Of a DNA stretch of 32,000 nucleotides, positions 232 through 32,000 are shown piece by piece. This DNA is from Nanobdella aerobiophila (GTDB lineage Archaea; Nanobdellota; Nanobdellia; Nanobdellales; Nanobdellaceae). The position numbers were made by a program, and so were the translations under genes. The stretch spans positions 600,001 to 632,000 of the forward strand of contig NZ_AP019769.1 of assembly GCF_023169545.1 (NCBI RefSeq). The letters run 5' to 3'. The notes beneath the pieces are model-generated. The model was not told the DNA's origin. It ran no database searches and saw nothing but the letters and a program-made list of their open reading frames with translations. The number at the start of each line of letters is the position of its first letter. Position 1 is the stretch's first letter.

Positions 232-2436
232 TTAGTGAACACCTTCTGGAATTCCTTTTCTTTTCCTTATAGAATCTATTATTTGTTGTTGCAAGTCTTT
301 TGGTACTCTCTCAAATAATTGATCCTCTAAATACCATACTCCTTTACCAGATGTAGTAGACCTTAATTCATCAGTAAATCCAAACATATTTGCTACAGGT
401 ATCTTAGCTTTTAAAGTAGATCTCTCTTCTTGAACATCCATTTCTAATACCTGTCCTCTCCTAGATTGTAATAATGATGTAACATCACCTACCGTTTCTG
501 GAGGTGTATCTATTCTTATAATTTGTAATGGTTCAAATAATGCAGGTTGTTCTAATATTGCTTCTTTTATTGAATCTTTAGCTGCAGGAATTATTTGAGC
601 AGGACCCCTATGTATTGCATCTTCATGTAATACTGCATCAATTAATTTTACTTTCATCATTATTGTTGGCTCCCATGCTAAAGGTCCTTGTTCCATAACT
701 TCCTTAAATCCTTGTACAATATATTCTATTACTTCTGGTAAATGTACTAAACCTCTAGTCATATCTATCAATACATTTCCATTTTGTACCATAATTATTC
801 TTCTAGCTTCTTCTTTATCAAAACCAATTTCATTAAATACTTTCCATAAATCTTCTTTTTTTATTCTTCCTTCTTCTATCTTACCTTCCCTTATATATTC
901 TCTTAATTTTTCATATATATTTGGATCTAAAGGTTCTATCTGGAAATATATTTTATTATGTTTATTTGGAGACTTACCTTCATGTACCTGCGTTTGTTTT
1001 AATACAGATTCTCTATATACAACTATTGGCTCACTTACATTTATAGGAATTCCAAAATCATTTTGAACCCTATATTCTAATATTTGTAAATGTAAGTCTC
1101 CTAAACCTGAAACCAATATCTCTCCTGTATCTTTCTTTTGTTCTACCTTTATTGTTGGATCTTCTCTTCTCATTAATTCTAATGTTTCTATTAATTTTGG
1201 TAAATCATTTGGATTTTTTGGTTCAAATGATTTTGTAACTACAGGATCTAACCAATGTTTTAATTCTTCAAATGTTTCTACTGATTTTGGATCTTGAACT
1301 TTTGCTACAATTGTTTCACCTGGATATAATCCTCTTATACCAACTAAAGCAATAATATTACCAGCTTTAACAGAATCTACATTTAATCTTTGTATACCCT
1401 TCCATATTGCTACTTGCTGTATTTTCACTGGTCTTCCAGCCTGGATTAAATATACATCATCTCCCTTGTTTAATGTTCCCGAAAACATTCTAGCAGTAGC
1501 AATTTCTTGTTTAGATATCTTATCTATAATTACATTTGTAACATTTATAACTAAAGGTCCATTTGGATCTGTATTTTCCATAGCTTTACCAACTTCTGAA
1601 TTTATATTACCTTTCCATATATGTGGGATTCTATATCTTTGAGCTTCTATTGGAGATGGTAGATGATTTATAACCATATCCAAAATTACTTTTGCTACAG
1701 GAGCTTTTTTTCTCATTTCTTCCCTTAATTTTTCCTTATCATTATCGTATTTTGTGTATATATCTATTATATCTTTAAACGAAACATTATTTTTCTTCAT
1801 ATATGGTAATGATAATGCCCAATGAAATTTTGCAGACCCAAATGCTACAGAACCATCTACCACATTTACATTCCATTTACCTTTAAATTCTTGGGGAGTA
1901 TACTTTTCTATCAACCTATTTACTTCTATAACTATATTACCAATTCTTTCCATTATTTGCTGCGGACTTAATTTTAATTCAGTTATTGCTCTATCAGCTT
2001 TATTTATAAATAATACTGGTTTTACATATTCTTTTAAAGCAGTTCTCAATACAGATTCTGTTTGAGGCATTATTCCATCTACAAAATCTACAACAACAAT
2101 TGCACCATCTGACGCTCTAGCAGCTCTAGTGACTTGTCCGGAAAATTCTACATGTCCTGGTGTATCTATTAAATTTATTAAATAGTCTTGATTTTCAAAT
2201 TCATGAACCATAGATACTGCAGCACCATATACTGTCATTTCTCTCTGTTTTTCTGTTTCATGCCACCAGGTAAACATTGCCTCACCAGCAAGCTCTTCTG
2301 CTAACATTCCTGCACCGGCCAATAAAGAATCTGTCAATGTAGTTTTACCATGGTGAATATGGGCTATTATTTCCATATTTCTAATATTCTTTGGATTATC
2401 CATGACTTTCAAGACTTTGTCTGTCAATGACGCCAT
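232..2436 (-). CDS. fusA: Translation elongation factor 2 (aEF-2)
   Basis: The GTPase motifs are present: AHIHHGKTT (G1), DTPGHVEF (G3), NKAD (G4). The diphthamide-site motif HEDAIHRGPAQ is also present, and the length is about 734 aa. The track ORF opens at 2454 on a TTG (complement of caa 2452-2454). The first ATG (complement of 2434-2436) gives MASLTDKVLKVMDNPKNIRN, which matches the usual aEF-2 N-terminus, so I prefer 2436. Confidence 0.95.
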   Translation of the reverse strand: MASLTDKVLKVMDNPKNIRNMEIIAHIHHGKTTLTDSLLAGAGMLAEELAGEAMFTWWHETEKQREMTVYGAAVSMVHEFENQDYLINLIDTPGHVEFSGQVTRAARASDGAIVVVDFVDGIMPQTESVLRTALKEYVKPVLFINKADRAITELKLSPQQIMERIGNIVIEVNRLIEKYTPQEFKGKWNVNVVDGSVAFGSAKFHWALSLPYMKKNNVSFKDIIDIYTKYDNDKEKLREEMRKKAPVAKVILDMVINHLPSPIEAQRYRIPHIWKGNINSEVGKAMENTDPNGPLVINVTNVIIDKISKQEIATARMFSGTLNKGDDVYLIQAGRPVKIQQVAIWKGIQRLNVDSVKAGNIIALVGIRGLYPGETIVAKVQDPKSVETFEELKHWLDPVVTKSFEPKNPNDLPKLIETLELMRREDPTIKVEQKKDTGEILVSGLGDLHLQILEYRVQNDFGIPINVSEPIVVYRESVLKQTQVHEGKSPNKHNKIYFQIEPLDPNIYEKLREYIREGKIEEGRIKKEDLWKVFNEIGFDKEEARRIIMVQNGNVLIDMTRGLVHLPEVIEYIVQGFKEVMEQGPLAWEPTIMMKVKLIDAVLHEDAIHRGPAQIIPAAKDSIKEAILEQPALFEPLQIIRIDTPPETVGDVTSLLQSRRGQVLEMDVQEERSTLKAKIPVANMFGFTDELRSTTSGKGVWYLEDQLFERVPKDLQQQIIDSIRKRKGIPEGVH

Positions 2437-2593
2437 TAGTATTTTTTTATTCAAAATAATTTAAAAAGGATCCTATATCTAAAAATTTCATTTTTGATAT
2501 AATAAAATTTTAAAAAGATAAAATAAGATCTACTAATAGAATGCCATATTTTTATAAATATAAAAATTTATTATAATTGCATAAAAAAGATAT

Positions 2594-2808: not shown

Positions 2809-3399
2809 ATGATAAATAAAAAATATATAATAATATTATCTGGTATAATATCTATAATAATTACAATAATATTAATATTACAAAATAATATGTATAATCA
2901 AGAACTTACAATAAAAATAAATAATAATAATTTAACATTATATAAATTAAATTTATATTATGAAGGATGTTATAATCTAACCATAAAAAATGGATATTTT
3001 ATAATATATCCTATAAGTTCTGCAGTTAATTTTTCTATGCCTACATACAATTATTTAAATACAACAAATATAATATATTGCAACGAAGATATATCATATA
3101 ATATAACAACAAATTTCTGCTCACCAATTGCCTGTCCAACTATATGTACTACAAATGGTTGTGTCAAATGCAACTATTGTAATAATTTTACATATTACAT
3201 AAATATAAACTATCCGATAATAATCGGAGAAAATAATGATTATATATCTAGTTCATCTATAGGAAATATAGTAATACTTAAATATGATAATAATGTATAT
3301 TCAACAAATAATGATATAATAATTAATAATATAGATAATAATTCAATATATTATATTATTAGCTTATATATAAATGATATAAAGAAGATTATTGTATGA
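2809..3399 (+). CDS. Hypothetical N-terminally membrane-anchored, Asn/Ile-rich, Cys-cluster protein
   Basis: The N-terminal TM segment is IIILSGIISIIITIILIL. Many N-x-S/T sequons follow, plus a cysteine cluster CSPIACPTICTTNGCVKCNYC. The stop overlaps the next start (ATGA at 3396-3399). I recognise no family. Confidence 0.55.
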   Translation: MINKKYIIILSGIISIIITIILILQNNMYNQELTIKINNNNLTLYKLNLYYEGCYNLTIKNGYFIIYPISSAVNFSMPTYNYLNTTNIIYCNEDISYNITTNFCSPIACPTICTTNGCVKCNYCNNFTYYININYPIIIGENNDYISSSSIGNIVILKYDNNVYSTNNDIIINNIDNNSIYYIISLYINDIKKIIV

Positions 3400-4061
3400 A
3401 TCTGGCAGTATTATATTCGGGTGGGAAAGATTCTAATTATTCATTATTTATAACTTCTAAATATTACAAGGTATCTGTATTATTAAATATTATTCCAAAA
3501 AATAATGAAAGTTATTTATATCAATATATAAATAACAAAATAACATTATTGCAGGCAAAAGCATTAAGTATAGATATATATAGAGCAGAAGTAAATGAAT
3601 CAGAAGAAAAAACATTAAAAGAAGCTTTAATATATCTAAAAAAAGAATATAATATTGATGGATTAGTAACTGGTGCAATAAGATCCACATACCAAGGATC
3701 TAAATTTCAAAAAATTTGTAAAGATTTAAAATTATGGTGCTTTAATCCTATATGGTTAATAAACGAAAAAATATATATTAAAGAATTAATAAAAAATAAT
3801 TTTGAATTTATAATTACGGGATGGTATTCTTACCCATTAGATATAGATATTTTAGGAAAAAAAGTCAATACATATATATTAAATAAACTAATAGAATATA
3901 ATAAAAAATATGGAATAAATATAGCTGGAGAAGGTGGGGAATATGAAACAATAGTACTATACCAACCACTATTTAAAAAAAGGATAAATATAGAAAAATA
4001 TAGGATAAATATAGAAAAAAATTATGCCGAATATATTATAGAAAAAGCTAGTCTGATATGA
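3396..4061 (+). CDS. dph6: Diphthine-ammonia ligase (Dph6 / MJ0570-PH1257 family PP-loop ATPase)
   Basis: It has the PP-loop LYSGGKDSNY at the N-terminus and the family-specific AGEGGEYET motif near the C-terminus. It is about 220 aa and collinear with my memory of archaeal MJ0570/PH1257-type proteins. Confidence 0.85.
   Translation: MNLAVLYSGGKDSNYSLFITSKYYKVSVLLNIIPKNNESYLYQYINNKITLLQAKALSIDIYRAEVNESEEKTLKEALIYLKKEYNIDGLVTGAIRSTYQGSKFQKICKDLKLWCFNPIWLINEKIYIKELIKNNFEFIITGWYSYPLDIDILGKKVNTYILNKLIEYNKKYGINIAGEGGEYETIVLYQPLFKKRINIEKYRINIEKNYAEYIIEKASLI
3981..4022 (+). repeat. In-frame 21-bp tandem duplication (2 copies, 1 mismatch) in the dph6 3' end
   Basis: aggataaatatagaaaaatat (3981-4001) is followed by aggataaatatagaaaaaaat (4002-4022). 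Together they encode RINIEKY/RINIEKN. Confidence 0.85.
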
Positions 4062-6643: not shown

Positions 6644-7447
6644 TTATTTATTATAAAAAGACTTATAAACGTTACTACCCTTTAAAAGGTATAGATCACT
6701 ATCACCGGGCAAGTATATTATAATATCATTATGATCAATTTTAAAAATTTTACTTAATTCCTTGGCTATATCTAGTTGCTTTTTATTTCCAGGAACCACT
6801 ATTGCATAATTTTGATATTTTTTTGTTATTACTTCTGGAACTCCAGAAAAAATTTCGTAGTTATCAAAAGATAAAGCTATCTCTAGCTTAACATTCTTTA
6901 TATAATTTTTATTCCCATATATCATAAATGATCCTTTATTCAAATACTCTCCAGATGGTGCTTTCTTAGATACCTGATCTGGATATACATAGTATACATC
7001 TATTGAAGAAAACTTATTTTTCCAGGCTCTAGAATATGAAGCCACAAATTTTGCCGATTCATATATATCTTCTTCTCTGGCTTTTCTACCATTTTTTAAA
7101 ATACCAAAAGGAGAACCTGTAATCTCTGTATGAAAAACAATATCATTATCTTCGAGATATTTATTTATTATTATTTCATTTGTTATAGAATCTTTCCCGG
7201 CAATCAATAGAAAATCATTTGAAGTTTTTGTCCATCTGAATTTTTCATACCATTTTCTGTTTTTCTTCTTTTCTTCTTTCTTTTTCTCTATGACTATGTT
7301 TTCTTCAATATTATTTAATTTTTCATTATAATCCTTTATTATTTCCTCTATCTTTTTCTTCTTATCTTTTAAGACTTTTAATCTACTATAGATATCGTTT
7401 ATATTTTCATATATTGATTTCCTTCTATCAATTTTTATTTCCAACAT
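6644..7447 (-). CDS. NFACT-R (DUF814) domain protein; C-terminal half only of an Rqc2/NEMF/FbpA-type ribosome quality control factor
   Basis: A Lys/Glu coiled coil is followed by WYEKFRWTKTSNDFLLIAGKDSITNEIIINKYLEDNDIVFHTEITGSPFGIL, the DUF814/NFACT-R signature (GrnxxqNexl...d.wfH...GS). No NFACT-N or HhH region is present. Confidence 0.7.
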   Translation of the reverse strand: MLEIKIDRRKSIYENINDIYSRLKVLKDKKKKIEEIIKDYNEKLNNIEENIVIEKKKEEKKKNRKWYEKFRWTKTSNDFLLIAGKDSITNEIIINKYLEDNDIVFHTEITGSPFGILKNGRKAREEDIYESAKFVASYSRAWKNKFSSIDVYYVYPDQVSKKAPSGEYLNKGSFMIYGNKNYIKNVKLEIALSFDNYEIFSGVPEVITKKYQNYAIVVPGNKKQLDIAKELSKIFKIDHNDIIIYLPGDSDLYLLKGSNVYKSFYNK

Positions 7448-8247
7448 ATATTATAGAATAAACATTTTTTACATGCATCTTTATAGACCTTTCCAGGATC
7501 CTTTTTCTCTTCTATCATATTATATATCTTATCTTTGGTATATAGTATATTTTCTATTTCTTTTTTATTTGTGAACTCTATTTCTTTTTTATAATTATCT
7601 TTAGCATATAATAAGTATCCTTTATTTATCTTATACTTTGGATACTCATCCTTTAATAATAAGTAATATGCATAAAGCTGAGTGACATGTTCTCTCCTAT
7701 AAAATCCAGATTTTATTTCATAAGGTATCATTTCATCTTTATATATCTCTATTCTATCTACCCTACCAATTATATTATTTTTTAATGATGTAACATCTAT
7801 TTCTGTAACCAATTTTGGTTCTAGATTTTCCCATAATTCTATACCATATAAATCACTCTCCAATATAAAATTATATACATTTTTTGCCCTCTCTTCTATA
7901 TCTTTACTAACATAATTATATGATTTTATCTTTATCTTATTCTTATCCAATTTCAATTTCTGAATTTCTTCATCAAATTCCAATAGAATATCCTCAATTA
8001 ATTTATATGTAAATTGATTATATAAATTTAATATATATTCATAACCTTTATTTTCCTTTATACTATATATTATATCTTTTTCTTTATCATTTATCCTATC
8101 AAATATAGAATGAACAATAGATCCAAAAATCTTCTGTTCTGTACTTTCTTCTTCATAATGCATAACCCTTTTTAAATAAACCTTTCTAGGACAGAAATAA
8201 TAATCAGTAATATCTGTTACTCTAATAAATATATTATTTAATACCAC
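7435..8247 (-). CDS. Cas4-like PD-(D/E)xK nuclease with a 4-Cys cluster (DUF83/RecB-family exonuclease); stand-alone
   Basis: The N-terminal Cys lies in YYFCPRKVYL. Other motifs are GSIVHSIF, GRVDRIEI (D), PYEIKSG (ExK) and QLYAYYLLL (QxxxY). The C-terminal cluster is CKKCLFYNIC (C-x2-C-x5-C). The stop region overlaps the NFACT-R start by 13 nt. Confidence 0.8.
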   Translation of the reverse strand: MVLNNIFIRVTDITDYYFCPRKVYLKRVMHYEEESTEQKIFGSIVHSIFDRINDKEKDIIYSIKENKGYEYILNLYNQFTYKLIEDILLEFDEEIQKLKLDKNKIKIKSYNYVSKDIEERAKNVYNFILESDLYGIELWENLEPKLVTEIDVTSLKNNIIGRVDRIEIYKDEMIPYEIKSGFYRREHVTQLYAYYLLLKDEYPKYKINKGYLLYAKDNYKKEIEFTNKKEIENILYTKDKIYNMIEEKKDPGKVYKDACKKCLFYNICWK

Positions 8248-8951: not shown

Positions 8952-9530
8952 ATGGTATTTTATAATATATTTATAACATTATTAACAAATATTGGATTCT
9001 TTAATATTATAGTTCCTTTTTTACTAGTTTATGCTGTAATGTATGGATTATTATCTAATTATAAAATAATAGGAGATCCATTCAAAGATGATCCTTCTGG
9101 AAAAGCAGTAAGGAGTATAATATCCATGATTGCTGCAGCTACTGGCTTTTTGGTTGTAGGAGCTGCAAATATTGTATTATCCTTAAATCAATTGATTCCA
9201 TATATAGTTTTATTTATATTAACTGTATTCTTCTTACTAATTGCTATATCTCCATTAGTATCAAAAGACGGAAAGATAGACCTAGATAAGAATACTAAAA
9301 GATTATTAGTTATAATAGCTGTTATAATATTTTCTATAGTATTAATATTTTCACTAGGACTCGTAAATTATTTAATGTCTATAGGAAAAGCAATTAGTAA
9401 CAACTCATTACCACCAGAGATAATAAACTTTATAGAAACAATAGTAATATTATTAATAATGTTTGGAATTGTATTCTTTACAATAAGAACTCCAAAGGCA
9501 AAAGAAGAAAAGAAGGATAATAGTAAATAA
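8952..9530 (+). CDS. Uncharacterized polytopic membrane protein, paralog 1 of 3
   Basis: It opens with IGFFNIIVPFLLVYAVMYGLL, has about 4-5 TM segments, and ends in a Lys/Glu tail, RTPKAKEEKKDNSK. It shares this architecture with the next two ORFs. Confidence 0.7.
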   Translation: MVFYNIFITLLTNIGFFNIIVPFLLVYAVMYGLLSNYKIIGDPFKDDPSGKAVRSIISMIAAATGFLVVGAANIVLSLNQLIPYIVLFILTVFFLLIAISPLVSKDGKIDLDKNTKRLLVIIAVIIFSIVLIFSLGLVNYLMSIGKAISNNSLPPEIINFIETIVILLIMFGIVFFTIRTPKAKEEKKDNSK

Positions 9531-10099
9531 TGATAGACTTTACTTCTTTGTTGAGTCAATATGGGATTTTCGATGTTATATTACCTTTTTTATTAATATT
9601 TTCCATAGTATTTATGGTTTTAGAATTAGCTGGACTATTAAAAACAGGTCCGGATGATGAAGTTGGTAGGAGACTAAATGCCTTATTTGCATTATCATTT
9701 GCACTACTATCTATAGGAAATCAAAACCTAATACAATGGTTATTATCTTTTATTCCAAATGCATCTGTTGCAGTATTGGGTTTTTTCCTATTGGCAATGG
9801 TAATAAGTATAAGTAATAAAAAGGTTCCAGGCTTCTTTAGGGCAATACTAGGACTTTTGGTGATAGGAATAATACTCTGGCTAGCATTGAATGCGCTGGA
9901 ACTTACTCCAAATGCAGGAGGAAGCTCTATTTCAGGAGCTCTAAATTATATAATATCCTACTTAATTAATTCAGGATTATTAGCAATATTAATAATATTT
10001 GTTTTATTAGGAATAACTATATTTTGGTTAGTATCTCCAAGTAAAAAGGAAGATAAAAAAGAAGAAGGTACACAGGTAATTCCATTATTGAGTAAATAA
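9530..10099 (+). CDS. Uncharacterized polytopic membrane protein, paralog 2 of 3
   Basis: It opens with YGIFDVILPFLLIFSIVFMVL. The late motif is YLINSGLLAILIIFVLLGITIFWLVSPSKKEDKKEE. There is a 1-nt start/stop overlap (TAATG) with paralog 1. Confidence 0.7.
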   Translation: MIDFTSLLSQYGIFDVILPFLLIFSIVFMVLELAGLLKTGPDDEVGRRLNALFALSFALLSIGNQNLIQWLLSFIPNASVAVLGFFLLAMVISISNKKVPGFFRAILGLLVIGIILWLALNALELTPNAGGSSISGALNYIISYLINSGLLAILIIFVLLGITIFWLVSPSKKEDKKEEGTQVIPLLSK

Positions 10100-10100
10100 A

Positions 10101-10763
10101 ATGGATCTAGGATCATATATATATTTATTATTCTCAGAATATGGAATATTTACAATAGTAGCTCCTTTCTTATTAATATTTTCATTATTATATGGACTAT
10201 TAAGGAAAACAGGCCTATTTGGTAAAGACAATCCAAATAAGGAGAGATTATATGCAATAATATCTATAGCCTTATCTTTTTATTATTTATATAATTTAGG
10301 CGCAGTAATATTTACTCAAGACTTTATATCATTCTTCTTCTTTGAATTCTTAGTATTGTTCTTTATATTGATGATTATTGGTTTACTAGCCTCAATATCA
10401 CAAGGTTTTCAACCTAAAGAGGAAGAAAAAGGATTATATAATAAATACAAAAACTCTGCATATAATTCTTTGGTTGGTATACTAGGACTATTGGTATTAT
10501 TTGCATTTATGTATGCATCATCATTCTCATTTACATCATTCGGTGCAGGAGCATCAAATATACTGTACTCCATATTTTCATTCTTAATAAATACAGGACT
10601 ATTACCATTAATAATTATATTTGGAGTTTTATTTGGAATAATTGGTTGGTTAGTAAGGACTCCAAATAAAAGTCCCAATAAGAGAAAGATTAATCCAAAA
10701 TTATTATTGATATCTGCTGGTGAAGCTCCTTATCAATTTTTTGATGAAGTATCAAAAAAATAA
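10101..10763 (+). CDS. Uncharacterized polytopic membrane protein, paralog 3 of 3
   Basis: It opens with YGIFTIVAPFLLIFSLLYGLL. The late motif is FLINTGLLPLIIIFGVLFGIIGWLVRTPNKSPNKRK. It starts 1 nt after the paralog 2 stop. Confidence 0.7.
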   Translation: MDLGSYIYLLFSEYGIFTIVAPFLLIFSLLYGLLRKTGLFGKDNPNKERLYAIISIALSFYYLYNLGAVIFTQDFISFFFFEFLVLFFILMIIGLLASISQGFQPKEEEKGLYNKYKNSAYNSLVGILGLLVLFAFMYASSFSFTSFGAGASNILYSIFSFLINTGLLPLIIIFGVLFGIIGWLVRTPNKSPNKRKINPKLLLISAGEAPYQFFDEVSKK

Positions 10764-10792: not shown

Positions 10793-11896
10793 ATGGTAAA
10801 GTTTATAACTGGAGATCATGAAATAAAAAATATTGTAGGAGATATATACAGAGGAGAAGATATCATAATAACAGATAAAAAAGGAAAATATCTAGGTATA
10901 TTATCAAATGAGAAAGCATTAAGATATTTAAATAAACCAAATACAAAAATAGATAAATTAATTATAAAAATAAAACCAATAGACGGGGATATTACATATA
11001 TAATAGAGAAGATGATAGGATCAAATACAAGATTGATACCAGTAAAAAAAGGTGATAAAATAGAAATTATGAACATTTTTGATTTATTAAATAATATATA
11101 TAATGATAAAAACACATTAAGGAATATAAAAATAGAAGATATAAAAAATAATGCTTATACAATATATGAGAATGACAATATAAATAAAGCAATAAACATA
11201 ATGAAAGAAAATGGTATTTCTAGATTAATAGTTATAAATAATGAAAATAAACCTGTAGGTATTCTAACCATATCTGATATATTAAGAAAATTGTTAATAC
11301 AAAATAATGAAGAAATAAGGGTACCTAAAGATGAAGACTTCGATATAAAGATAAAATCCATAATAAAAAATAACCTAATATTTGCAAGCAAAAAAGATAG
11401 TATAGAAAATATTATAGAATTATTAGTAAAAAATAAAATATTTTCAGTACCTATATTGGATGAAAAAAATAATTTATATGGTATAGTAACAGCAAAAGAT
11501 ATATTAATAGCATACTTACAAAATAAAAAAGAAAAAAAATATAATATAGTAATAAGTGGTATAGATTTGGATGAAATAGATCAAAAATATATAAAAAATG
11601 AATATGAAAGGTTTAATAAAAAATACAGTAATATACTAGGAAATATAAAAATAATAATACATGTAAAAAAGATTAATGAAAATATAAAAGATAAAAAAAT
11701 ATTCTATAGTATAAAAGCAAGATTAATTTCTGATAAGTTAAGATTTTATGTACAAAATAATGGATATGATTTCTATTCAACAATAAATGATATATTTCAT
11801 ATATTATCAAATGAAGCAGAAAAATATAAACATAAAGATGAAAGAGAATATCTACTGCAAAGAATGTTTAAGGATGATATAATAAGATATATATAA
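10793..11896 (+). CDS. Four-CBS-domain (two Bateman modules) protein with a C-terminal HPF/RaiA (ribosomal S30AE)-like domain
   Basis: The CBS-like units end in GILSNEKALRYL, IEIMNIFDLLNNI, VGILTISDILRKLL and YGIVTAKDILIAYL. C-terminal residues about 250-350 (YNIVISGIDLDEIDQKYIKNEYERFNKKYSNILGNIKIIIHVKK...YSIKARLISDKLRFYVQNNGYDFYSTINDIFHILSNEAEKYKHKD) align by eye with E. coli HPF (MQLNITGNNVEITEALREFVTAKFAKLEQYFDRINQVYVVLKVEK...DMYAAIDGLIDKLARQLTKHKDK). Confidence 0.7.
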   Translation: MVKFITGDHEIKNIVGDIYRGEDIIITDKKGKYLGILSNEKALRYLNKPNTKIDKLIIKIKPIDGDITYIIEKMIGSNTRLIPVKKGDKIEIMNIFDLLNNIYNDKNTLRNIKIEDIKNNAYTIYENDNINKAINIMKENGISRLIVINNENKPVGILTISDILRKLLIQNNEEIRVPKDEDFDIKIKSIIKNNLIFASKKDSIENIIELLVKNKIFSVPILDEKNNLYGIVTAKDILIAYLQNKKEKKYNIVISGIDLDEIDQKYIKNEYERFNKKYSNILGNIKIIIHVKKINENIKDKKIFYSIKARLISDKLRFYVQNNGYDFYSTINDIFHILSNEAEKYKHKDEREYLLQRMFKDDIIRYI

Positions 11897-11897
11897 A

Positions 11898-12500
11898 ATG
11901 ATATTATTACCCGGAGATAAGTTAAATAATAAAAATATATATAGTTATGATATAAATGATGAGTTTTTTTCTAAATATATATTATTATCAAATGATAATA
12001 TAAAGTATAATAAAATATTTGGATATTATATACCAAAAATAGGAGATGTAGTTATATCAAAAGTAATAGATGTGTTAAGCAATGGATGGTTGCTAGATAT
12101 AAATTCTCCATACCTAGGATTCCTACAATTAAAAAATGTTGTACAAAAGGATATAGACCATAATAAAATATATACATATGGAGATTATATATTAACAGAA
12201 ATTACAAAGATAACTAAAAACATGATGATTAATTTAAACTTAAAAAATAGGAAAAAACTAAATAATGGATTAATTATAAGTATAGATCCGATAAAATTAC
12301 CAAGACTAATAGGTAAAAACTCTTCAATGATAAATATGATAAAGGAAAAATTAAATATAAAAATTATAACCGGAAAAAATGGTAGATTATACTTATCGGG
12401 TGATTATGCAAACATAATAAAAGCTTATAATGTAATTAAATTTATTATGAAAAATTCATATAAAAAAGGCCTAACAGAAAAGATAAATGAAATTATATAA
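11898..12500 (+). CDS. rrp4: Exosome RNA-binding subunit Rrp4 (S1 + KH domains)
   Basis: The S1 segment is PKIGDVVISKVIDVLSNGWLLDINSPYLGFL. The KH segment is LPRLIGKNSSMINMIKEKLNIKIITGKNGRLYLSG. It lies immediately upstream of, and overlaps, rrp41, as in archaeal exosome operons. Confidence 0.8.
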   Translation: MILLPGDKLNNKNIYSYDINDEFFSKYILLSNDNIKYNKIFGYYIPKIGDVVISKVIDVLSNGWLLDINSPYLGFLQLKNVVQKDIDHNKIYTYGDYILTEITKITKNMMINLNLKNRKKLNNGLIISIDPIKLPRLIGKNSSMINMIKEKLNIKIITGKNGRLYLSGDYANIIKAYNVIKFIMKNSYKKGLTEKINEII

Positions 12501-13249
12501 TGTCAAGGTTTGACGGAAGAAAAGAAGATGAATTAAGAAATATATATATAGAATTAAATCCGATAGAAAATGCAAAAGGTTCTGCAATATTTGCTTTTGG
12601 AGAAACAAGAGTATTGGCTGCCGTGTATGGTCCTAGAGGGTCTAAAATGTCAAAAGATTATGATAGAGCATTTTTAAGAGTAAAATATAATATGATTACA
12701 TTTTCTGTACCTGAAAGAAAAAAACCAACTCCAGGTAGAAGAGAAATAGAAGTATCTGAAGTTATTAAAAGAGCAATAGAACCTGCATTATTATTAGAAG
12801 AATTACCAGGAAGCATAATAGATGTATATATAGAAGTATTAAATGCAAATGCTGGTACTAGAACTGCGAGTATTAATGCAGTATCATTAGCTTTATCTTT
12901 AGCAGGTATACCAATGAGAGATTTGGTTAGTTCAGTTGCTGTAGGAAAGGTTGGACAAAAAATATTAGTTGATCTAAATAAAGATGAAGAAGACTATAAT
13001 TCGGAAAAATTAAAGGATATAGAAGAAAAAAGGAAATTTATAGAATTTTATGGAGAAGGAAGAGCTACAGATATACCAATAGCATATTTACCATACAAAA
13101 ATGAAATTTCGTTAATCCAATTAGATGGTGAAATAAATAATAATGAATTAAAAGATGCAATAAATCTAGGAATTAAGTCTTGCAAAAATATAAAAAACCT
13201 CATGAAAGACAAGATATTAGAATACTTTTCCGATACCAACATAAGGTAA
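12500..13249 (+). CDS. rrp41: Exosome RNase PH subunit Rrp41
   Basis: RNase PH motifs are present: RFDGRKEDELR, GSAIFAFGETRVLAAVYGPR, NAGTRTASINAVSLALSLAGIPMRDLV and LIQLDGE. Confidence 0.9.
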   Translation: MSRFDGRKEDELRNIYIELNPIENAKGSAIFAFGETRVLAAVYGPRGSKMSKDYDRAFLRVKYNMITFSVPERKKPTPGRREIEVSEVIKRAIEPALLLEELPGSIIDVYIEVLNANAGTRTASINAVSLALSLAGIPMRDLVSSVAVGKVGQKILVDLNKDEEDYNSEKLKDIEEKRKFIEFYGEGRATDIPIAYLPYKNEISLIQLDGEINNNELKDAINLGIKSCKNIKNLMKDKILEYFSDTNIR

Positions 13250-13283: not shown

Positions 13284-14615
13284 ATGGATAATAAAAAAAT
13301 AATATTATCTTTATCTTCTATAATAGGATCAAAGTTTATTTTTTCTCAAGGATCTAATAATATATATACTAGTGTAATTAGCACTAGTTCAATATATAAT
13401 GCTGCACAAGAAGCAGCAGGCGGTATCGCATATACTTTAGCAAATTTATTTCCACCAATTTATATAACAGCTGCACAAGAAATGAATATATATTCTTCAA
13501 ATCCTTATATAGGCGCAATAATTGCTGCATCTATGCTATTTCTATTATTTTTTACTATATATTTAGTTACATTAAAAATTATGTTCAGCAGAATATTAGA
13601 TAACTTTGGAAAGGAATTGAGCAATGAAGGTATAATATCAAGGGGACCTTATGTAATAGCGGCAATATTTTCATTTTTCAGTATATATCTTATAGGTCCC
13701 ATATTACTAACATTGTTCGTAGAAATAGGAATTATTGACATGATCTTTGTTATATTAATTATAGCTGTAATAGCAATACTTGGATTTAAAATATTGTATC
13801 ATGGTGGCTTAAAGGATGCGGGGGCATCTATAAAAAGTATAGGAAGTAAATTAAAAAGTATAAATAAAATACCAGAGAAATTTTATAATTATAATGATAA
13901 AAGGACTGTTATCAATTTAGGAAAAAAAATAGATCTAAAATCCTTAGATCTAGATATACAAAGGCTTATAGTATCTGTATTAAATGAGATAATTAAAAAT
14001 CTTGAAGATTTAAGTAAAGAAATGTCAAAAGTAGAAAAACAAGAAATTATTAAAAAAAATTTATCTGGGATAAAACCAGAAATTATTAAAAGAGATTTAT
14101 CTGGGATAAAACAAGGAACTGGAAAAGAAAAAGCTAATATTATAAAACAAATACGTGATAAATCGATGCCAAAAAGAAACACTCAAGAAATTATTGGACA
14201 ATATTATAACAGATTAAAAGAATATATAAGGCAGTTATCCCAGGTAAAACAAGGCATTGAAAAAGAAAATGCCGATAATATAAAAGCAATGTATAATAAA
14301 TTAGTATCATTAGGATATTTCAATACATTAGGTATATTAAAAAATATGAAAAATGAATTAAGATCATATAATAATATAATTAATAAGATAGATGAAATAA
14401 TAAATAATATAGAAAAGCTCAAAGAAGAACTTAACAAAAATTTAAATATAAATGATCTTAAAAGTGGATATGAAAAAATTAGCAAGATAAAGAATAGAAG
14501 AGATCTCCAAGGACAAAATAATGATAAAATAATTGCTAAAATAAGCGCTTTATCTGAAAAAATAGGAGAACTAGCTAAGATTAAGAGTCAATTAGAAAAT
14601 ATAATAGGTCAATAA
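13284..14615 (+). CDS. Hypothetical membrane-anchored coiled-coil protein
   Basis: The N-terminal third has several TM segments (for example IGAIIAASMLFLLFFTIYLV and IIDMIFVILIIAVIAILGF). The C-terminal roughly 250 aa is Lys/Glu/Ile-rich heptad-like sequence with an internal 12-aa tandem repeat. I recognise no family. Confidence 0.55.
   Translation: MDNKKIILSLSSIIGSKFIFSQGSNNIYTSVISTSSIYNAAQEAAGGIAYTLANLFPPIYITAAQEMNIYSSNPYIGAIIAASMLFLLFFTIYLVTLKIMFSRILDNFGKELSNEGIISRGPYVIAAIFSFFSIYLIGPILLTLFVEIGIIDMIFVILIIAVIAILGFKILYHGGLKDAGASIKSIGSKLKSINKIPEKFYNYNDKRTVINLGKKIDLKSLDLDIQRLIVSVLNEIIKNLEDLSKEMSKVEKQEIIKKNLSGIKPEIIKRDLSGIKQGTGKEKANIIKQIRDKSMPKRNTQEIIGQYYNRLKEYIRQLSQVKQGIEKENADNIKAMYNKLVSLGYFNTLGILKNMKNELRSYNNIINKIDEIINNIEKLKEELNKNLNINDLKSGYEKISKIKNRRDLQGQNNDKIIAKISALSEKIGELAKIKSQLENIIGQ
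14043..14114 (+). repeat. 36-bp in-frame tandem repeat (2 copies) inside the coiled-coil ORF
   Basis: gaaattattaaaaaaaatttatctgggataaaacca (14043-14078) is followed by gaaattattaaaagagatttatctgggataaaacaa (14079-14114). They encode EIIKKNLSGIKP/EIIKRDLSGIKQ. Confidence 0.85.
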
Positions 14616-21008: not shown

Positions 21009-21055
21009 AGCGGTCATACTTCTTGGGTTAAAGCCCACGGTGGTGATCCACCGAA

Positions 21056-22536
<1,481 letters not shown>

Positions 22537-22543
22537 TAGTTAA

Positions 22544-24316: not shown

Positions 24317-24727
24317 ATGTCTGAATTCATGCTAAGAGGATATAAAATTGATGAATTAAGAAATATGTCCATTAAAGAATTTGCTGAGAAAGTTGCAGAT
24401 AGTAGAGTAAGAAGAACATTATTAAGAAGATTAAAATTGGGTTTTCCAGTAGAATGGGAGAACTTTTACAGAAAATGCTATTTACAAAAAGAAGGTAAAT
24501 ATAAGAAAACTGTTAGAACACACGCAAGAGAAATAATAATATTACCATTTATGCTAGGAACAAGAATAGGCGTACATAATGGAAAAGAATTTGTAGAATT
24601 AGAAATAAAAGAAAATATGATAGGAAGAAGAGTGGGAGAATTCGTATTTACAACAAAGAAAGTTCAACATTCCAATCCAGGTATTGGTGCTTCTAAATCT
24701 TCTAGATTTATGAAAGCTAAAAAGTAA
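24317..24727 (+). CDS. rps19: Ribosomal protein S19 (uS19)
   Basis: Contains VRTHAREIIILPFMLGTRIGVHNGKEFVELEIKENMIGRRVGEFVFTTKKVQHSNPGIGASKSSRF, the classic uS19 core (RTH.R..II.P.M.G..IGV.NGK.F..V.I...MIG..LGEF). Confidence 0.92.
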   Translation: MSEFMLRGYKIDELRNMSIKEFAEKVADSRVRRTLLRRLKLGFPVEWENFYRKCYLQKEGKYKKTVRTHAREIIILPFMLGTRIGVHNGKEFVELEIKENMIGRRVGEFVFTTKKVQHSNPGIGASKSSRFMKAKK

Positions 24728-24729
24728 AA

Positions 24730-26244
24730 TTACCTTTTTAGGCTTTTTATTGTATATTTATTGAAAAATATCTTATATAATTTTAGTCTATATGGCAATG
24801 TATTTAAGAAAGGTATCCATGGTAGTAATGCTAATAATATGAAGAATCCTAATCCTGCTATACCTGTATATAATGTATGCCACCATGGTATATGATCTCC
24901 TATTATCTCTATTGCGTCTAAATAAAATAACCAATAGGAGCCTATTTGATATTCTTCCACATTAAATTTAATCATACCAAAATAATACTCATGTAACTTA
25001 TACTCTGAACCTTCTATATTATGTATTAGAGACATATCTGCAAGTAATCTATCTGTATATGTATAATCTAGAGGAGAATTATAAGGAGACTCACTTAATA
25101 ATATATCATCATATAATCCTGTTCTCCCCATCAAAACTAAAGATGCGATTACTTTTTCAAAATAATTATTGGAGTTTAAAGCAGAATAAATATTGCCATT
25201 GTCCTCAAAATATGTATATGCTGAATTTATTTGTTCTTCTTGCAATGTATAGTTTTCTGATTGGAATATAGATAAATAATTAGTTTCATTTAATGAATTT
25301 ACAAGAATATTATAAGGATACTCTACATAAACATATCTAGTATTAATTTCATAAGGATTTGTAGATAAATTATAAGGATTATAATATCCTAGAGGAGAAA
25401 ATTTTGAATATGTTGCAGTTCCAGATGTATAATTATATTCTTGAATTAAAGTAACTGCTAATAAATTTGGATAATTCTTTGCTGCATATTGTATATTTAA
25501 TTGCTCTATTTGCGGATAATACCATAAAGGTCCTAGAATAACTCCAAGAGCGATTATTAATCCTCCTATTAAACCCGCTCTAATAAACAATTTCTTATGA
25601 TCTGCTTTCACAATATTGTATTTAACATATTTTTTATCTATATTTGAAATTCCCCTCTTAGTTTCTAATAATATATGTATACCAATTAATAATGTTAATA
25701 TAATAGGAACAACTGCAATATGCCAACCATACAAAGCACCGTAATTTTCAGGATTTATAAAATATAAATAAAAAGAGTTCCATAATCCAGCACCACTCTT
25801 ATCATTATATTGAGCAACTATATTATAATTTAATCCTAATCCAAAGGCATATTGAATAGAAGCAACAAAAAATATTACCACACCTAAAACCCACATATCC
25901 TTTCTTCTTAAATGAGCTCCTGTAAAATACATTGTAATACCATGGATTATCATTAGAGTCATAAAAATTTCTGCAGCCCAGAAATGTATTTGAGATATTA
26001 ATACACCCCACCATGTAAAATTCCACCAAAATGGACCAAATATAACCATTATTACACCAGTTATTATTAAAATAATTAATGCAACAACCATAAAGATTCC
26101 TGTTTGAAAGAAGAATGAATTTCCATATTCTGGCAAATTTTCTATATAAAAAGACTCAAATATTTCTTTTAAATCTTTTAAAGTCTGATTTTTATTTATA
26201 ATATCTTTTACGAAATTCGATCTCATAAAAAATAGTATAAACAA
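24730..26244 (-). CDS. Cytochrome b (bc1/b6 N-terminal domain)-like four-helix, four-His membrane protein with a large Tyr/Asn-rich extracytoplasmic domain and a C-terminal TM
   Basis: NLPEYGNSFFFQTGIFMVVALIILIITGV...ISQIHFWAAEIFMTLMIIHGITMYFTGAHLRRKDMWVLGVVIFFVASIQYAFG...YGWHIAVVPIILTLLIGIHILLETKRG aligns by eye with bovine cytochrome b ([56 protein letters not shown]...[28 protein letters not shown]). The His pairs are H87/H101 (spacing 14) and H175/H190 (spacing 15, b6-like). Confidence 0.65.
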   Translation of the reverse strand: MFILFFMRSNFVKDIINKNQTLKDLKEIFESFYIENLPEYGNSFFFQTGIFMVVALIILIITGVIMVIFGPFWWNFTWWGVLISQIHFWAAEIFMTLMIIHGITMYFTGAHLRRKDMWVLGVVIFFVASIQYAFGLGLNYNIVAQYNDKSGAGLWNSFYLYFINPENYGALYGWHIAVVPIILTLLIGIHILLETKRGISNIDKKYVKYNIVKADHKKLFIRAGLIGGLIIALGVILGPLWYYPQIEQLNIQYAAKNYPNLLAVTLIQEYNYTSGTATYSKFSPLGYYNPYNLSTNPYEINTRYVYVEYPYNILVNSLNETNYLSIFQSENYTLQEEQINSAYTYFEDNGNIYSALNSNNYFEKVIASLVLMGRTGLYDDILLSESPYNSPLDYTYTDRLLADMSLIHNIEGSEYKLHEYYFGMIKFNVEEYQIGSYWLFYLDAIEIIGDHIPWWHTLYTGIAGLGFFILLALLPWIPFLNTLPYRLKLYKIFFNKYTIKSLKR

Positions 26245-30017: not shown

Positions 30018-32000
30018 GGGTTCGAGTAGATTATATAGCTTCACGGGATATTCAGATAGTCAGCTGAACTCCTTTACGGAGCTTACACTGCTATCTTAAC
30101 GGATCTTCTATCCGAGCCCTTAATGGCTGTCTATTTTCAAGGAAGGCTTCACCCTTAGATGCTTTCAGGGCTTATCCTTCAGGGTGTGGCTACCGGGCCT
30201 GCCCTTTTCGGACAACCCGTAAACTAGAGACCCCGATCCACCGTTCCTTTCGTACTAGGTGGACCTTTCCCTCAGACAGCCGACACTTCCGACAGTTATA
30301 ACCGAGCTGCCTCGCGGCGCTCTAAACCCATCTCACGATCTCCTTTAATGGGTGGGCACCCCCACCCTTGGCGGCTTCTGCACCACCAGGATGGAGAGAG
30401 ACGACATCGATGTCGCAAACCGCGGGGTCAATAGGGGCTCTCGCCCGCGACGGCGCTGTTACCCCCGGAGTAGCTTTTTCGCCAGCCCATACCCCCACCA
30501 AAGGGAGTATGGGGTTCGCTAGGCCCAGGTTTCCCTCCTGTATCCCTTGATGGTCAGGATACAGCCAGGCTAGCTTTTGGCCTTGTCCTCTACAGCGGAT
30601 TTCTAACCCGCTTGAGCTAACCATATGGACCCTGCCGATATCTTTTCGGCAAGGTGCCGCCCCAGCCAAACTGTCCACCTGCTGATGTTCCCTTTCGGGT
30701 CAGCCTTAAAAGATTTGGAGGTGGGTGTTTCATCGTCGCATCTTTCTTACCTAGCGGCAAGAATTCATAGCTCCCCACTACACTACACACCAAATCTTTC
30801 AAGGCAACAGCAAGCTACAGTTAAGCTTCACGGGGTCTTTTTTACCCATCGGAAGTCCCTGGCTTTCTCACCAGGATGGCTTTTCAGGAGGTACCAGCCC
30901 GGGACAGTGGCGGACTAGTTACGTCGTTCGCAAAGCCGGCAATTAACCGGCAAGGCATTACGCTACCTTAAGAGGGTCAGAGTTACCCCCGCCGTTTACC
31001 GGTCCTTAGCTCCCTTGAACGGGAGGTTCAGATACCGACACTGAGCAGACGTCACCCCCAGTACACATCCTTTCGGACTAGCTGGGAGCTATGTCTTTAA
31101 TAAACAGTCCGCCCGCCCTTGTAACTGCGACCTGCAGTACTATGTACCGCAGGCATCCCTTATCCCAAAGTTACGGGACCATTTTGCCGAGTTCCCTGGA
31201 CTGGTTTAACCTCACGGCCTTAGGCTGTTCACCCAGAGGACCAATACTGGATTGCGGTACGATCGTTCGGAATCGCATCTTTTTCCTTTTCATTGCTAGA
31301 AGGCCTCGGCAGAACCTTTCGGCCCGTCAGGATTTAAGCTGGTTCTCATCATGACGATACTCCCCAGCTTTATCTCCCTTAGTATGATAGGTAGATTTTA
31401 CTCTACCCTCATATCTGCCTAGCCCTCTAGGTCGGAAAAAGAAGTTGCGTCACCGCATCTATCCGAACGGTAGAGGAATATTAACCTCTTTCCCTTTCTC
31501 CGAATCCCTCTCGGGAATCGGATTAGGATCGACTAACCCCAAGCTGATCTTCATAGCTTGGGAAACCTTTCCCCCTTCGGCCAATAGGATTCTCACCTAT
31601 CTCATTCTTACTACCGCAGAGATCTTCATTCTCAACGGCTCCAGGTTTCCTTTCAGAAACCCTTCTAGGCCATTGAGACGCCCACCTACCTCACGCCGGA
31701 CAATGTCCAGCGGACTAAGGTCTCGGCAGCCAACTTAGACCCGTCCGTTTGCGGAGCCTATCTCCTCGCCAGGTGAGTTGTTACACACTCCTTAGATGAT
31801 AGCCACTATTGGGCCCACATCCCTGGTGTCTTAGGAAATAGACTCCTTCTAAATCTATTAGCTGGCATTTTGGGGCCTTAACCTTAGTCTCGGTTGTTCC
31901 CGTCTCGGAATTGCGGATTTCCCGCAATCCCCTGCTCCCAGATAAAGGACCTTACAGCTTCGGAGTTGGACTCTATATGGGAATCCCATATAAAATCCGT
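30018..32000 (-). rRNA. rrl: 23S ribosomal RNA, 3' roughly two-thirds (5' part lies beyond the window end)
   Basis: The reverse complement contains CCUGAAAGCAUCUAAG (near the 3' end), the sarcin-ricin loop AGUACGAAAGGAAC, the PTC strand GGGGGUAACAGCG, GACAUCGAUGUCG, and H69-H71 GGUAAACGGCGGGGGUAACUCUGACCCUCUUAAGGUAGCG. It is GC-rich. The 3' end is approximate to about 15 nt. Confidence 0.95.

Follow-up and report, generated by a model that had tools for sequence, protein, structure and literature searches.

A 32,000-nt window of the genome of Nanobdella aerobiophila (assembly GCF_023169545.1, contig NZ_AP019769.1, positions 600,001 to 632,000 of the forward strand) carries a gene, referred to here as hibA, whose product appears to belong to the HibA/AHA family of archaeal ribosome hibernation factors. 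In the open reading frame (ORF) listing of the window, where G+C content is ∼25% outside the rRNA genes, hibA is a 367-aa ATG-initiated frame at 10793..11896 on the plus strand. It is preceded by a 29-nt AT-rich spacer that is uninformative, and a single base separates its TAA stop codon (11894-11896) from the ATG of the exosome gene rrp4 at 11898. The product is 100% identical to an N. aerobiophila protein named "homoserine O-acetyltransferase" in both NCBI and UniRef. A word-based homolog search for close relatives (n = 10) brought together nine homologs of 367-370 aa and 51-60% identity from Nanoarchaeota/Nanopusillaceae or metagenome contigs, all nine of which share the position of the start Met. 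The features of the gene, with secondary structure taken from an AlphaFold2 (AF2) model, are as follows.

10793..11896, plus strand: hibA, HibA/AHA-family protein with a CBS tetrad and an HPF/RaiA-like domain (ORF; identity to the N. aerobiophila protein; phmmer E = 1.1e-23 against 9SR9 chain H)
10793..10936, plus strand: CBS1, residues ∼1-48, divergent (AF2 strands 2-6, 23-27, and 33-37, helices 15-19 and 39-47; G35-I-L-S motif without the Asp)
10955..11104, plus strand: CBS2, residues ∼55-104, divergent (AF2 helices 67-77 and 95-103, strands 81-86 and 89-94; inside the HibA alignment)
11126..11296, plus strand: CBS3, residues ∼112-168, with an intact ribose-phosphate motif G156-I-L-T-I-S-D162 (best Pfam CBS stretch, 115-168; motif)
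11297..11350, plus strand: loop after CBS3, residues 169-186, a shortened and acidic equivalent of the HibA 'PTC loop' (alignment with residues 190-207 of the Pyrococcus abyssi protein)
11351..11530, plus strand: CBS4, residues ∼187-246, with an intact motif G230-I-V-T-A-K-D236 (AF2 helices 204-214 and 234-245, strands 218-222 and 228-233; motif)
11540..11836, plus strand: HPF/RaiA-like domain (PF02482 match at residues 251-348; AF2 domain model; Foldseek; profile A4 against the PDB)
11837..11893, plus strand: C-terminal helical tail, residues 349-367 (AF2 helix 351-366, at lower confidence; corresponds to the HibA tail)

Homology to HibA Over Both Modules

The best PDB match of the hibA product is 9sr9_H, a 392-aa chain with the PDB label "Dehydrogenase" (phmmer E = 1.1e-23), in which residues 35-368 align with residues 22-342 of the window protein, from CBS1 through the HPF domain. 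Entry 9SR9 is "HibA-ATP", the hibernation factor of P. abyssi on the ribosome (Madru et al., 2026), and the similarity to this experimentally characterized protein is significant over both modules. The family has been described under three names, HibA (PAB0961 of P. abyssi; PDB 9SR9-9SRF and 9T7H; Madru et al., Nat Commun 2026, PMC13324472), AHA (HVO_2384 of Haloferax volcanii; Souza et al., 2026, PMC12934967), and Hib (bioRxiv 10.1101/2025.10.11.676729). HibA consists of four CBS domains (residues 1-269) followed by an HPF/RaiA-like domain (residues 270-392) and is present in 47% of archaeal genomes (Madru et al., 2026), so that the doubt voiced in a first-pass annotation of this DNA, whether HPF homologs normally belong to archaeal genomes, is outdated.

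An HPF/RaiA-Like C-Terminal Domain

The C-terminal domain of the full-length AF2 model comprises strand 252-255, helix 264-282, strands 286-297, 302-312, and 317-324, and helix 327-346, with an extra helix at 351-366. Its match to the Pfam family PF02482 (Ribosomal_S30AE) pairs residues 251-348 with profile positions 2-86 of 88 and scores 17.1 bits for the whole protein (E = 0.0096) and 20.2 bits when the domain is taken by itself (E = 0.001), against a Pfam gathering threshold of 23.7 bits. The match is repeated in seven of nine family members, is supported by a similarity to TIGR00741 yfiA (E = 0.0025), and exceeds the cut-off in two fusion homologs (P0016, 33.8 bits; P0018, 35.4 bits). Of the 11 PDB matches of a narrow profile built from nine C-terminal domains (A2), 10 are HPF/RaiA/YfiA or HibA chains, with marginal E-values for the HPF chains (0.05-0.2); the same profile gave 23 matches at E ≤ 0.001 among 1.84 billion representative proteins; thirteen of these are proteins of 363-390 aa with the domain at their C-terminus, while ten are stand-alone proteins of 105-146 aa, two of which pass the curated PF02482 cut-off. 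When A2 was widened with matches from the representative library to a 24-sequence domain profile (A4), all 27 PDB matches were HPF/RaiA or HibA-type/archaeal-length fusion chains, with HibA at 6.3e-15, bacterial HPF/RaiA down to 2.9e-7, and, as further archaeal-length fusion chains, 9l96_a (a CBS-domain fusion) at 7.7e-7 and 9i5v_14 at E = 0.48.

Because a Foldseek search with the full-length model is dominated by CBS tetrads, a separate model of the domain was used for structural comparison (predicted local distance difference test score, pLDDT, 84.6). Ranks 1-33 of its PDB matches are all HPF, RaiA/YfiA, pY, or RafH, the best at E = 8e-6, with a root-mean-square deviation of 2.4-3.5 Å over ∼100 columns among the best matches and target-normalized template modeling scores of 0.43-0.80 (∼0.7-0.8 for most stand-alone chains). 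An ACT or dimerization fold, which the first-pass annotation had named as one finding that would speak against its reading, is absent among the 50 Foldseek matches listed for the domain model, and this fold assignment was rejected in view of the HPF/RaiA/pY character of ranks 1-33. The other finding named there, a lack of profile or structural similarity to HPF/RaiA, is contradicted by the A4 and Foldseek results. At the residue level, the family consensus of helix 2, GYDLYSTIKDIF.ILENEAEKIKHKN, aligns with GQDMYAAIDGLIDKLARQLTKHKDK of E. coli HPF, and K346-H347-K348 is invariant in the family. The motif D.Y..I......L......K.KHKD, among the features from which an HPF/RaiA-like domain had been proposed at first pass, is thus real, and the domain itself is borne out by the A4 profile, the first 33 Foldseek ranks, and the HibA alignment.

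A CBS Tetrad With Two Intact Nucleotide Motifs

The remainder of the protein is accounted for by CBS units. Pfam CBS matches with E = 1.9e-26 and resolves two stretches only, and the full-length AF2 model (pLDDT 84.4; predicted template modeling score 0.81) contains four β-α-β-β-α units, that is, the two Bateman modules counted at first pass. The tetrad superposes in Foldseek on CBS tetrads over 256-287 columns, including those of MJ1225, Dri, SriC/D, AMPK-γ, and, as the best match, ribosome-bound SriA (9znf_4, 2.9e-16). HibA entries are not among the PDB matches listed for the full-length model, perhaps because the Foldseek copy of the PDB runs to 2026-04-08 and the HibA paper is dated 2026-04-27. 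In published phylogenies, the HibA/AHA tetrad is placed beside the 50S-binding tetrads of the SriA and Dri N-terminal type (CM-5 in the scheme of the HibA paper; Madru et al., 2026; Souza et al., 2026).

The ribose-phosphate motifs (GhhTxxD) are intact in CBS3 (GILTISD at 156) and CBS4 (GIVTAKD at 230) and degenerate in CBS1 and CBS2, and the glycines and aspartates of the two intact motifs, G156 and D162 included, are invariant in the family. By equivalence with HibA and AHA, the CBS3/CBS4 junction of the window protein is the predicted AMP/ATP site. Both modules are basic, with net charges of +7 and +5 and a pI of 9.2.

Since the HibA alignment extends over both modules and the A4 profile and the first 33 Foldseek ranks of the C-terminal domain lead to HPF/RaiA and HibA-type chains, the window protein is assigned to the HibA/AHA family as the N. 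aerobiophila ortholog of this two-module archaeal ribosome hibernation factor, with a probability of roughly 0.88. The fusion of a CBS sensor to an HPF domain as an archaeal hibernation factor was already published in 2025-2026, and the present result is a confirmation rather than a discovery.

Ribosome Contacts and the Shortened PTC Loop

For comparison of ribosome contacts, P. abyssi HibA residues 35-386 were rebuilt from printed alignments, and 81 of 81 residues taken from the contact table in Supplementary Data 1 agree with the reconstruction (Madru et al., 2026). In the resulting 23-sequence alignment, whose register is uncertain in helix 2, several contacting residues have counterparts. 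E323 of P. abyssi HibA, which contacts the G530-equivalent base (Madru et al., 2026), corresponds to E296, invariant in ten close homologs; Y317 corresponds to H290, invariant in the close family and part of an H-x-K-K motif; the counterpart of R336 is a conserved R/K at position 310 (R310 in the window protein); and R299 corresponds to R273. Four contacting arginines (R326, R347, R362, and R366) have no conserved counterpart; a K-x-K-H-K patch follows instead, as in the "TKHKDK" of E. coli HPF. The C-terminal tail of HibA runs towards the mRNA exit channel, and the first strand of its HPF domain pairs with the C-terminal tail of uS19 in P. abyssi (Madru et al., 2026). The uS19 encoded in the window (136 aa, 24317-24727, plus strand) ends in such a tail (...SKSSRFMKAKK), and the presence of this tailed partner counts in favor of the HibA assignment.

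The loop that follows CBS3 differs. In P. abyssi HibA, loop 190-207 enters the peptidyl-transferase center (PTC), where its Y195-G-E-L tip stacks on A2834 (Madru et al., 2026). Measured from anchor to anchor, the loop spans 27 residues in all ten Nanobdella/Nanopusillus-type proteins as compared with 31 in P. abyssi and 30-34 in distant HibA homologs. The four missing residues are the Y195-G-E197-L198 tip, deleted in 10 of 10 Nanobdella/Nanopusillus-type sequences, while other HibA relatives retain an x-G-E-[LI] motif at this position; the net charge of the loop in the window protein is −3. Because the loop is shortened, tipless, and acidic, the mode of binding on the 50S side may differ from that in P. 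abyssi. The shortening is not reported in the HibA and AHA papers and is a lineage-specific point of modest added value.

Proposed Mechanism of Ribosome Hibernation

Cryo-electron microscopy, translation inhibition, and deletion phenotypes have been reported on the function of the family (Madru et al., 2026; Souza et al., 2026). HibA's C-terminal domain occupies the 30S mRNA/tRNA channel, whereas its CBS module is seen at three 50S positions, the PTC, uL5, and the L1 stalk, and when hibA is deleted in Thermococcus barophilus, 70S pools are smaller and recovery is delayed (Madru et al., 2026). By analogy with the complexes solved for P. abyssi and H. volcanii, the N. aerobiophila protein is predicted to bind the ribosome in a similar manner. 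Its basic HPF/RaiA-like domain would sit in the 30S mRNA/tRNA channel at the decoding center, sterically excluding mRNA as well as A-site and P-site tRNAs, and the N-terminal CBS tetrad would dock at the tRNA sites of the 50S subunit. With one module on each subunit, a single protein could clamp an idle 70S ribosome and protect its functional RNA against nucleases.

The second Bateman module (CBS3/CBS4) would bind adenine nucleotides, AMP best, and could thereby provide a link to the energy state of the cell. HibA binds AMP (12 μM) in preference to ADP and ADP in preference to ATP at its CBS3/CBS4 interface (Madru et al., 2026), and AHA of H. volcanii holds two AMP molecules at CBS3/CBS4, with its CBS3 loop in the PTC (Souza et al., 2026). 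Nucleotide control of the window protein may be envisaged on this basis, although an "energy-charge switch" is a hypothesis even for the characterized members, because AMP and ATP did not measurably change ribosome binding in P. abyssi. The energy-controlled ribosome silencing suggested at first pass is supported, with this qualification: the fusion architecture and its function have been demonstrated in P. abyssi and T. barophilus (Madru et al., 2026) and in H. volcanii (Souza et al., 2026), while a nucleotide effect on ribosome binding was not seen for P. abyssi HibA. A full-length, two-module hibernation factor has been retained in an ectosymbiont genome of 0.67 Mb, which suggests that storing ribosomes is important for cells relying on a host for nucleotides and energy. 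No paper mentioning hibernation in Nanobdella was found.

Linkage of hibA to Exosome Genes

The genes on either side of hibA are, on the same strand:

8952..10763 (8952-9530, 9530-10099, and 10101-10763), plus strand: three tandem membrane-protein paralogs upstream of hibA (ORFs)
11898..12500, plus strand: rrp4, exosome cap subunit, 200 aa (NF003181, 1.2e-45; RRP4_S1 and KH domains)
12500..13249, plus strand: rrp41, exosome RNase PH subunit, 249 aa (TIGR02065, 1.3e-75; RNase_PH, 1.5e-33; synteny)

The spacing of one base between hibA and rrp4, with rrp41 next in line, was noticed at first pass and is upheld by the coordinates and by the NF003181 and TIGR02065 matches; base 12500 is common to the rrp4 stop and the rrp41 start (a 1-nt overlap). 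The arrangement is operon-like and conserved, and co-transcription of hibA with the exosome genes would be expected from it. The upstream paralogs (192, 189, and 220 aa) gave only a weak DUF6097 match in the Pfam scan. Rrp4 is short, with its S1 domain starting at residue 44 and an N-terminal domain that seems reduced; the Rrp4 of a deeper relative, locus L019 (5635-6330), has 231 aa and an N-terminal domain of the ECR1_N_2 type. In Rrp41, residues 141-226 match the 67-position RNase_PH_C profile, which implies an insertion of ∼20 residues around 'NSEKLKDIEEKRKFIEFYGEG'.

A locus search with a single peptide pattern returned only Nanopusillaceae-type loci and three non-HibA CBS matches, so that the taxonomic survey is incomplete. 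In 19 of 19 related loci, with HibA 33-60% identical, the block of three membrane paralogs, hibA, rrp4, and rrp41 is kept as far as the contigs reach, and the paralogs lie 5' of hibA wherever there is enough upstream sequence. Among them are YN1, Nanopusillus acidilobi, Nanobsidianus stetteri, and several metagenome bins. In three deeper relatives, a helix-turn-helix ORF of 140-150 aa with HTH_40/HTH_38-type matches lies between hibA and rrp4 (L019, 5186-5638; L021, 1615-2064; L022, 1958-2380); it is absent from Nanobdella and Nanopusillus. The 3' flank of rrp41 varies: it encodes a coiled-coil membrane protein in the window, whereas L003 has genes on the reverse strand there and L019 has RFC subunits. 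The ORF in question in the window (13284-14615, plus strand) encodes 443 aa with a hydrophobic N-terminal part and a repetitive, Lys/Glu-rich C-terminal part, and no Pfam family matched it.

Four more distant HibA genes lie away from exosome genes, beside uS19 with RNA polymerase subunit L, beside Cas6 and MarR genes, or elsewhere among unrelated genes. In one distant relative (L024), hibA directly adjoins the uS19 gene (2182-2538). A general archaeal linkage between hibA and the exosome was therefore rejected on account of these four loci; the linkage exists within the Nanoarchaeales lineage and is limited to it. The gene order from which a link to RNA turnover was drawn at first pass is conserved within Nanoarchaeales and absent at the four distant loci, and the functional link itself is putative. 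Neither of the two family papers (PMC13324472, PMC12934967) nor any other paper found mentions a HibA-exosome gene linkage, and the hibA-rrp4-rrp41 order in Nanoarchaeales, which persists down to 33% HibA identity, is likewise of modest added value. Gene order and shortened PTC loop thus provide research on HibA with two concrete variations that can be tested.

The linkage could be plain synteny in compact genomes, because a Cas4-like nuclease and other unrelated neighbors are equally conserved in position. It is still suggestive, because the exosome is the main 3'-end decay machine of archaea and because SBDS provides a precedent. Koonin and colleagues are said to have placed SBDS immediately upstream of rrp4 in other archaea in 2001. 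In other archaea, the SBDS gene forms part of the exosome superoperon (PMC2695463); its product has a slight inhibitory effect on the exosome in vitro (PMC2890523) and, as aSBDS, occupies idle ribosomes next to HibA (Madru et al., 2026).

Weighing the Assignment Against Other Readings

Several observations weigh against an unqualified HibA assignment. The C-terminal domain scores below the curated PF02482 threshold, and the identity of the N. aerobiophila protein as HibA is read from its sequence and from predicted structures, the latter built on shallow alignments of 9-10 sequences. In place of the h44-contacting residues R326, R347, R362, and R366 the protein has D, Q, H, and N, within the limits set by the uncertain register of helix 2, and the CBS3 loop is four residues shorter, acidic, and devoid of the Y-G-E-L tip. 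Moreover, AMP and ATP had no clear effect on ribosome binding by P. abyssi HibA itself (Madru et al., 2026).

The same loss of the loop tip and of several h44-contact arginines, taken with the close packing of hibA, rrp4, and rrp41 (a 1-nt spacer and a 1-nt overlap) that is kept in all related Nanoarchaeales-type loci collected, down to 33% HibA identity, while the 3' flank of rrp41 changes, raises the question of whether the protein has been drawn towards RNA decay. It is conceivable, though rather unlikely, that hibA was brought into an exosome operon beside rrp4 in Nanoarchaeales, other archaea having an SBDS gene somewhere in this superoperon, and that its PTC-plug tip was lost as well, giving a lineage variant that would co-express, and perhaps physically couple, ribosome protection and exosome decay. 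If true, this coupling might allow a symbiont that depends on its host either to store its ribosomes or to recycle them. A further departure, in which a HibA-derived protein would work mainly with the RNA exosome, for example as an RNA-binding regulator or adaptor of Rrp4/Rrp41 decay instead of or beside a ribosome clamp, finds the same precedent in SBDS (PMC2695463, PMC2890523) and is decidedly improbable. The Cas4-like nuclease and the three membrane paralogs are as conserved in position as the exosome genes, HibA genes outside the clade are not beside exosome genes, and the HPF domain retains its fold, the invariant E296, H290-x-K-K, the KHK triplet, and its basic charge. An action of HPF-family proteins on the exosome is not known.

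Two other readings set the ribosome aside altogether. A generic CBS regulatory protein, whose C-terminal domain would be an unrelated α/β fold of the ACT-like or dimerization type without ribosome binding, is hardly credible in view of the HPF/RaiA/pY chains that fill Foldseek ranks 1-33, the lack of an ACT or dimerization fold among the 50 matches listed, the A4 searches that return HPF/RaiA/HibA only, and the end-to-end match to ribosome-bound HibA. The database label has the smallest chance of all of being correct. An identical protein is so named in NCBI and UniRef, and the name has probably spread from CBS-containing MetX-type entries; Pfam and NCBIfam scans found neither an acyltransferase nor an α/β-hydrolase domain in the hibA product, which makes the name "homoserine O-acetyltransferase" wrong, and it was rejected since four CBS units and the HPF-like domain cover the whole length. 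Membership in the HibA/AHA family remains the preferred reading, and it corrects a misannotation in one of the few cultivated Nanoarchaeota. The same misannotation can spread to further records.

Other Features of the Window

Further genes related to translation occur in the window, namely those for aEF2, diphthamide synthase, and a 267-aa NFACT-R protein (RqcH/NEMF-type, RNA-binding). The last overlaps a gene for a Cas4/PD-(D/E)XK nuclease, and the pair is kept in related loci. The ORFs of this translation-related and nuclease neighborhood lie at 232-2454 (minus strand), 3396-4061 (plus strand), 6644-7447 (minus strand), and 7435-8247 (minus strand). The archaeal 16S (21055-22543, plus strand) and 23S (30031-32000, minus strand) rRNA genes are not linked; they lie ∼7.5 kb apart on opposite strands, with TGT, uS19, a cytochrome-b-like protein, and T2SS-F/E-type pilus genes between them. 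The cytochrome-b-like protein, a 504-aa ORF at 24730-26244 on the minus strand (Cytochrom_B_N_2, 5.9e-10), would not be expected in a symbiont genome of such small size. No tRNA was detected in the window by ARAGORN.

Comparison With Known Systems

Of the archaeal exosome gene cluster, the adjacent rrp4 and rrp41 are present in the window, and rrp42, the second RNase PH gene that follows rrp41, as well as csl4 and SBDS, were not found among the scanned window ORFs. The window protein resembles aSBDS in being a predicted ribosome-binding factor encoded with exosome subunit genes, and it belongs to an unrelated fold and family. With SriA-D/ARC of Methanosarcina and Methanolobus and Dri of Pyrobaculum it shares the CBS tetrad, which superposes best on SriA; these factors, in contrast, lack an HPF/RaiA domain and rely on CBS tetrads, alone or paired, to block the ribosome.

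Compared with bacterial HPF/RaiA (YfiA, pY; PF02482), the C-terminal domain has the same fold (Foldseek 8e-6 to 1e-3), a detectable profile similarity, and the helix-2 motif ...D-x-Y-x-x-I...K-H-K-[DN], and the solved archaeal complexes show the same 30S site occupied (Souza et al., 2026; Madru et al., 2026). It differs in its archaeal-type insertions and sub-threshold Pfam score and in its position C-terminal to a CBS tetrad, being neither a stand-alone protein of ∼95-120 aa nor a long HPF with a dimerization domain. The solved archaeal factors hold a single 70S ribosome, and 100S dimers are not reported in the passages of these papers that were covered.

The closest likeness is to HibA/AHA. 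The window protein is shorter than that of P. abyssi (367 vs. 392 aa), its gene stands directly upstream of rrp4-rrp41, several h44 arginines are lost, and its PTC loop is short and acidic. It nevertheless shares with the family the lengthened β2-β3 hairpin relative to bacterial HPF, the intact nucleotide motifs of CBS3 and CBS4, and similarity over both modules.

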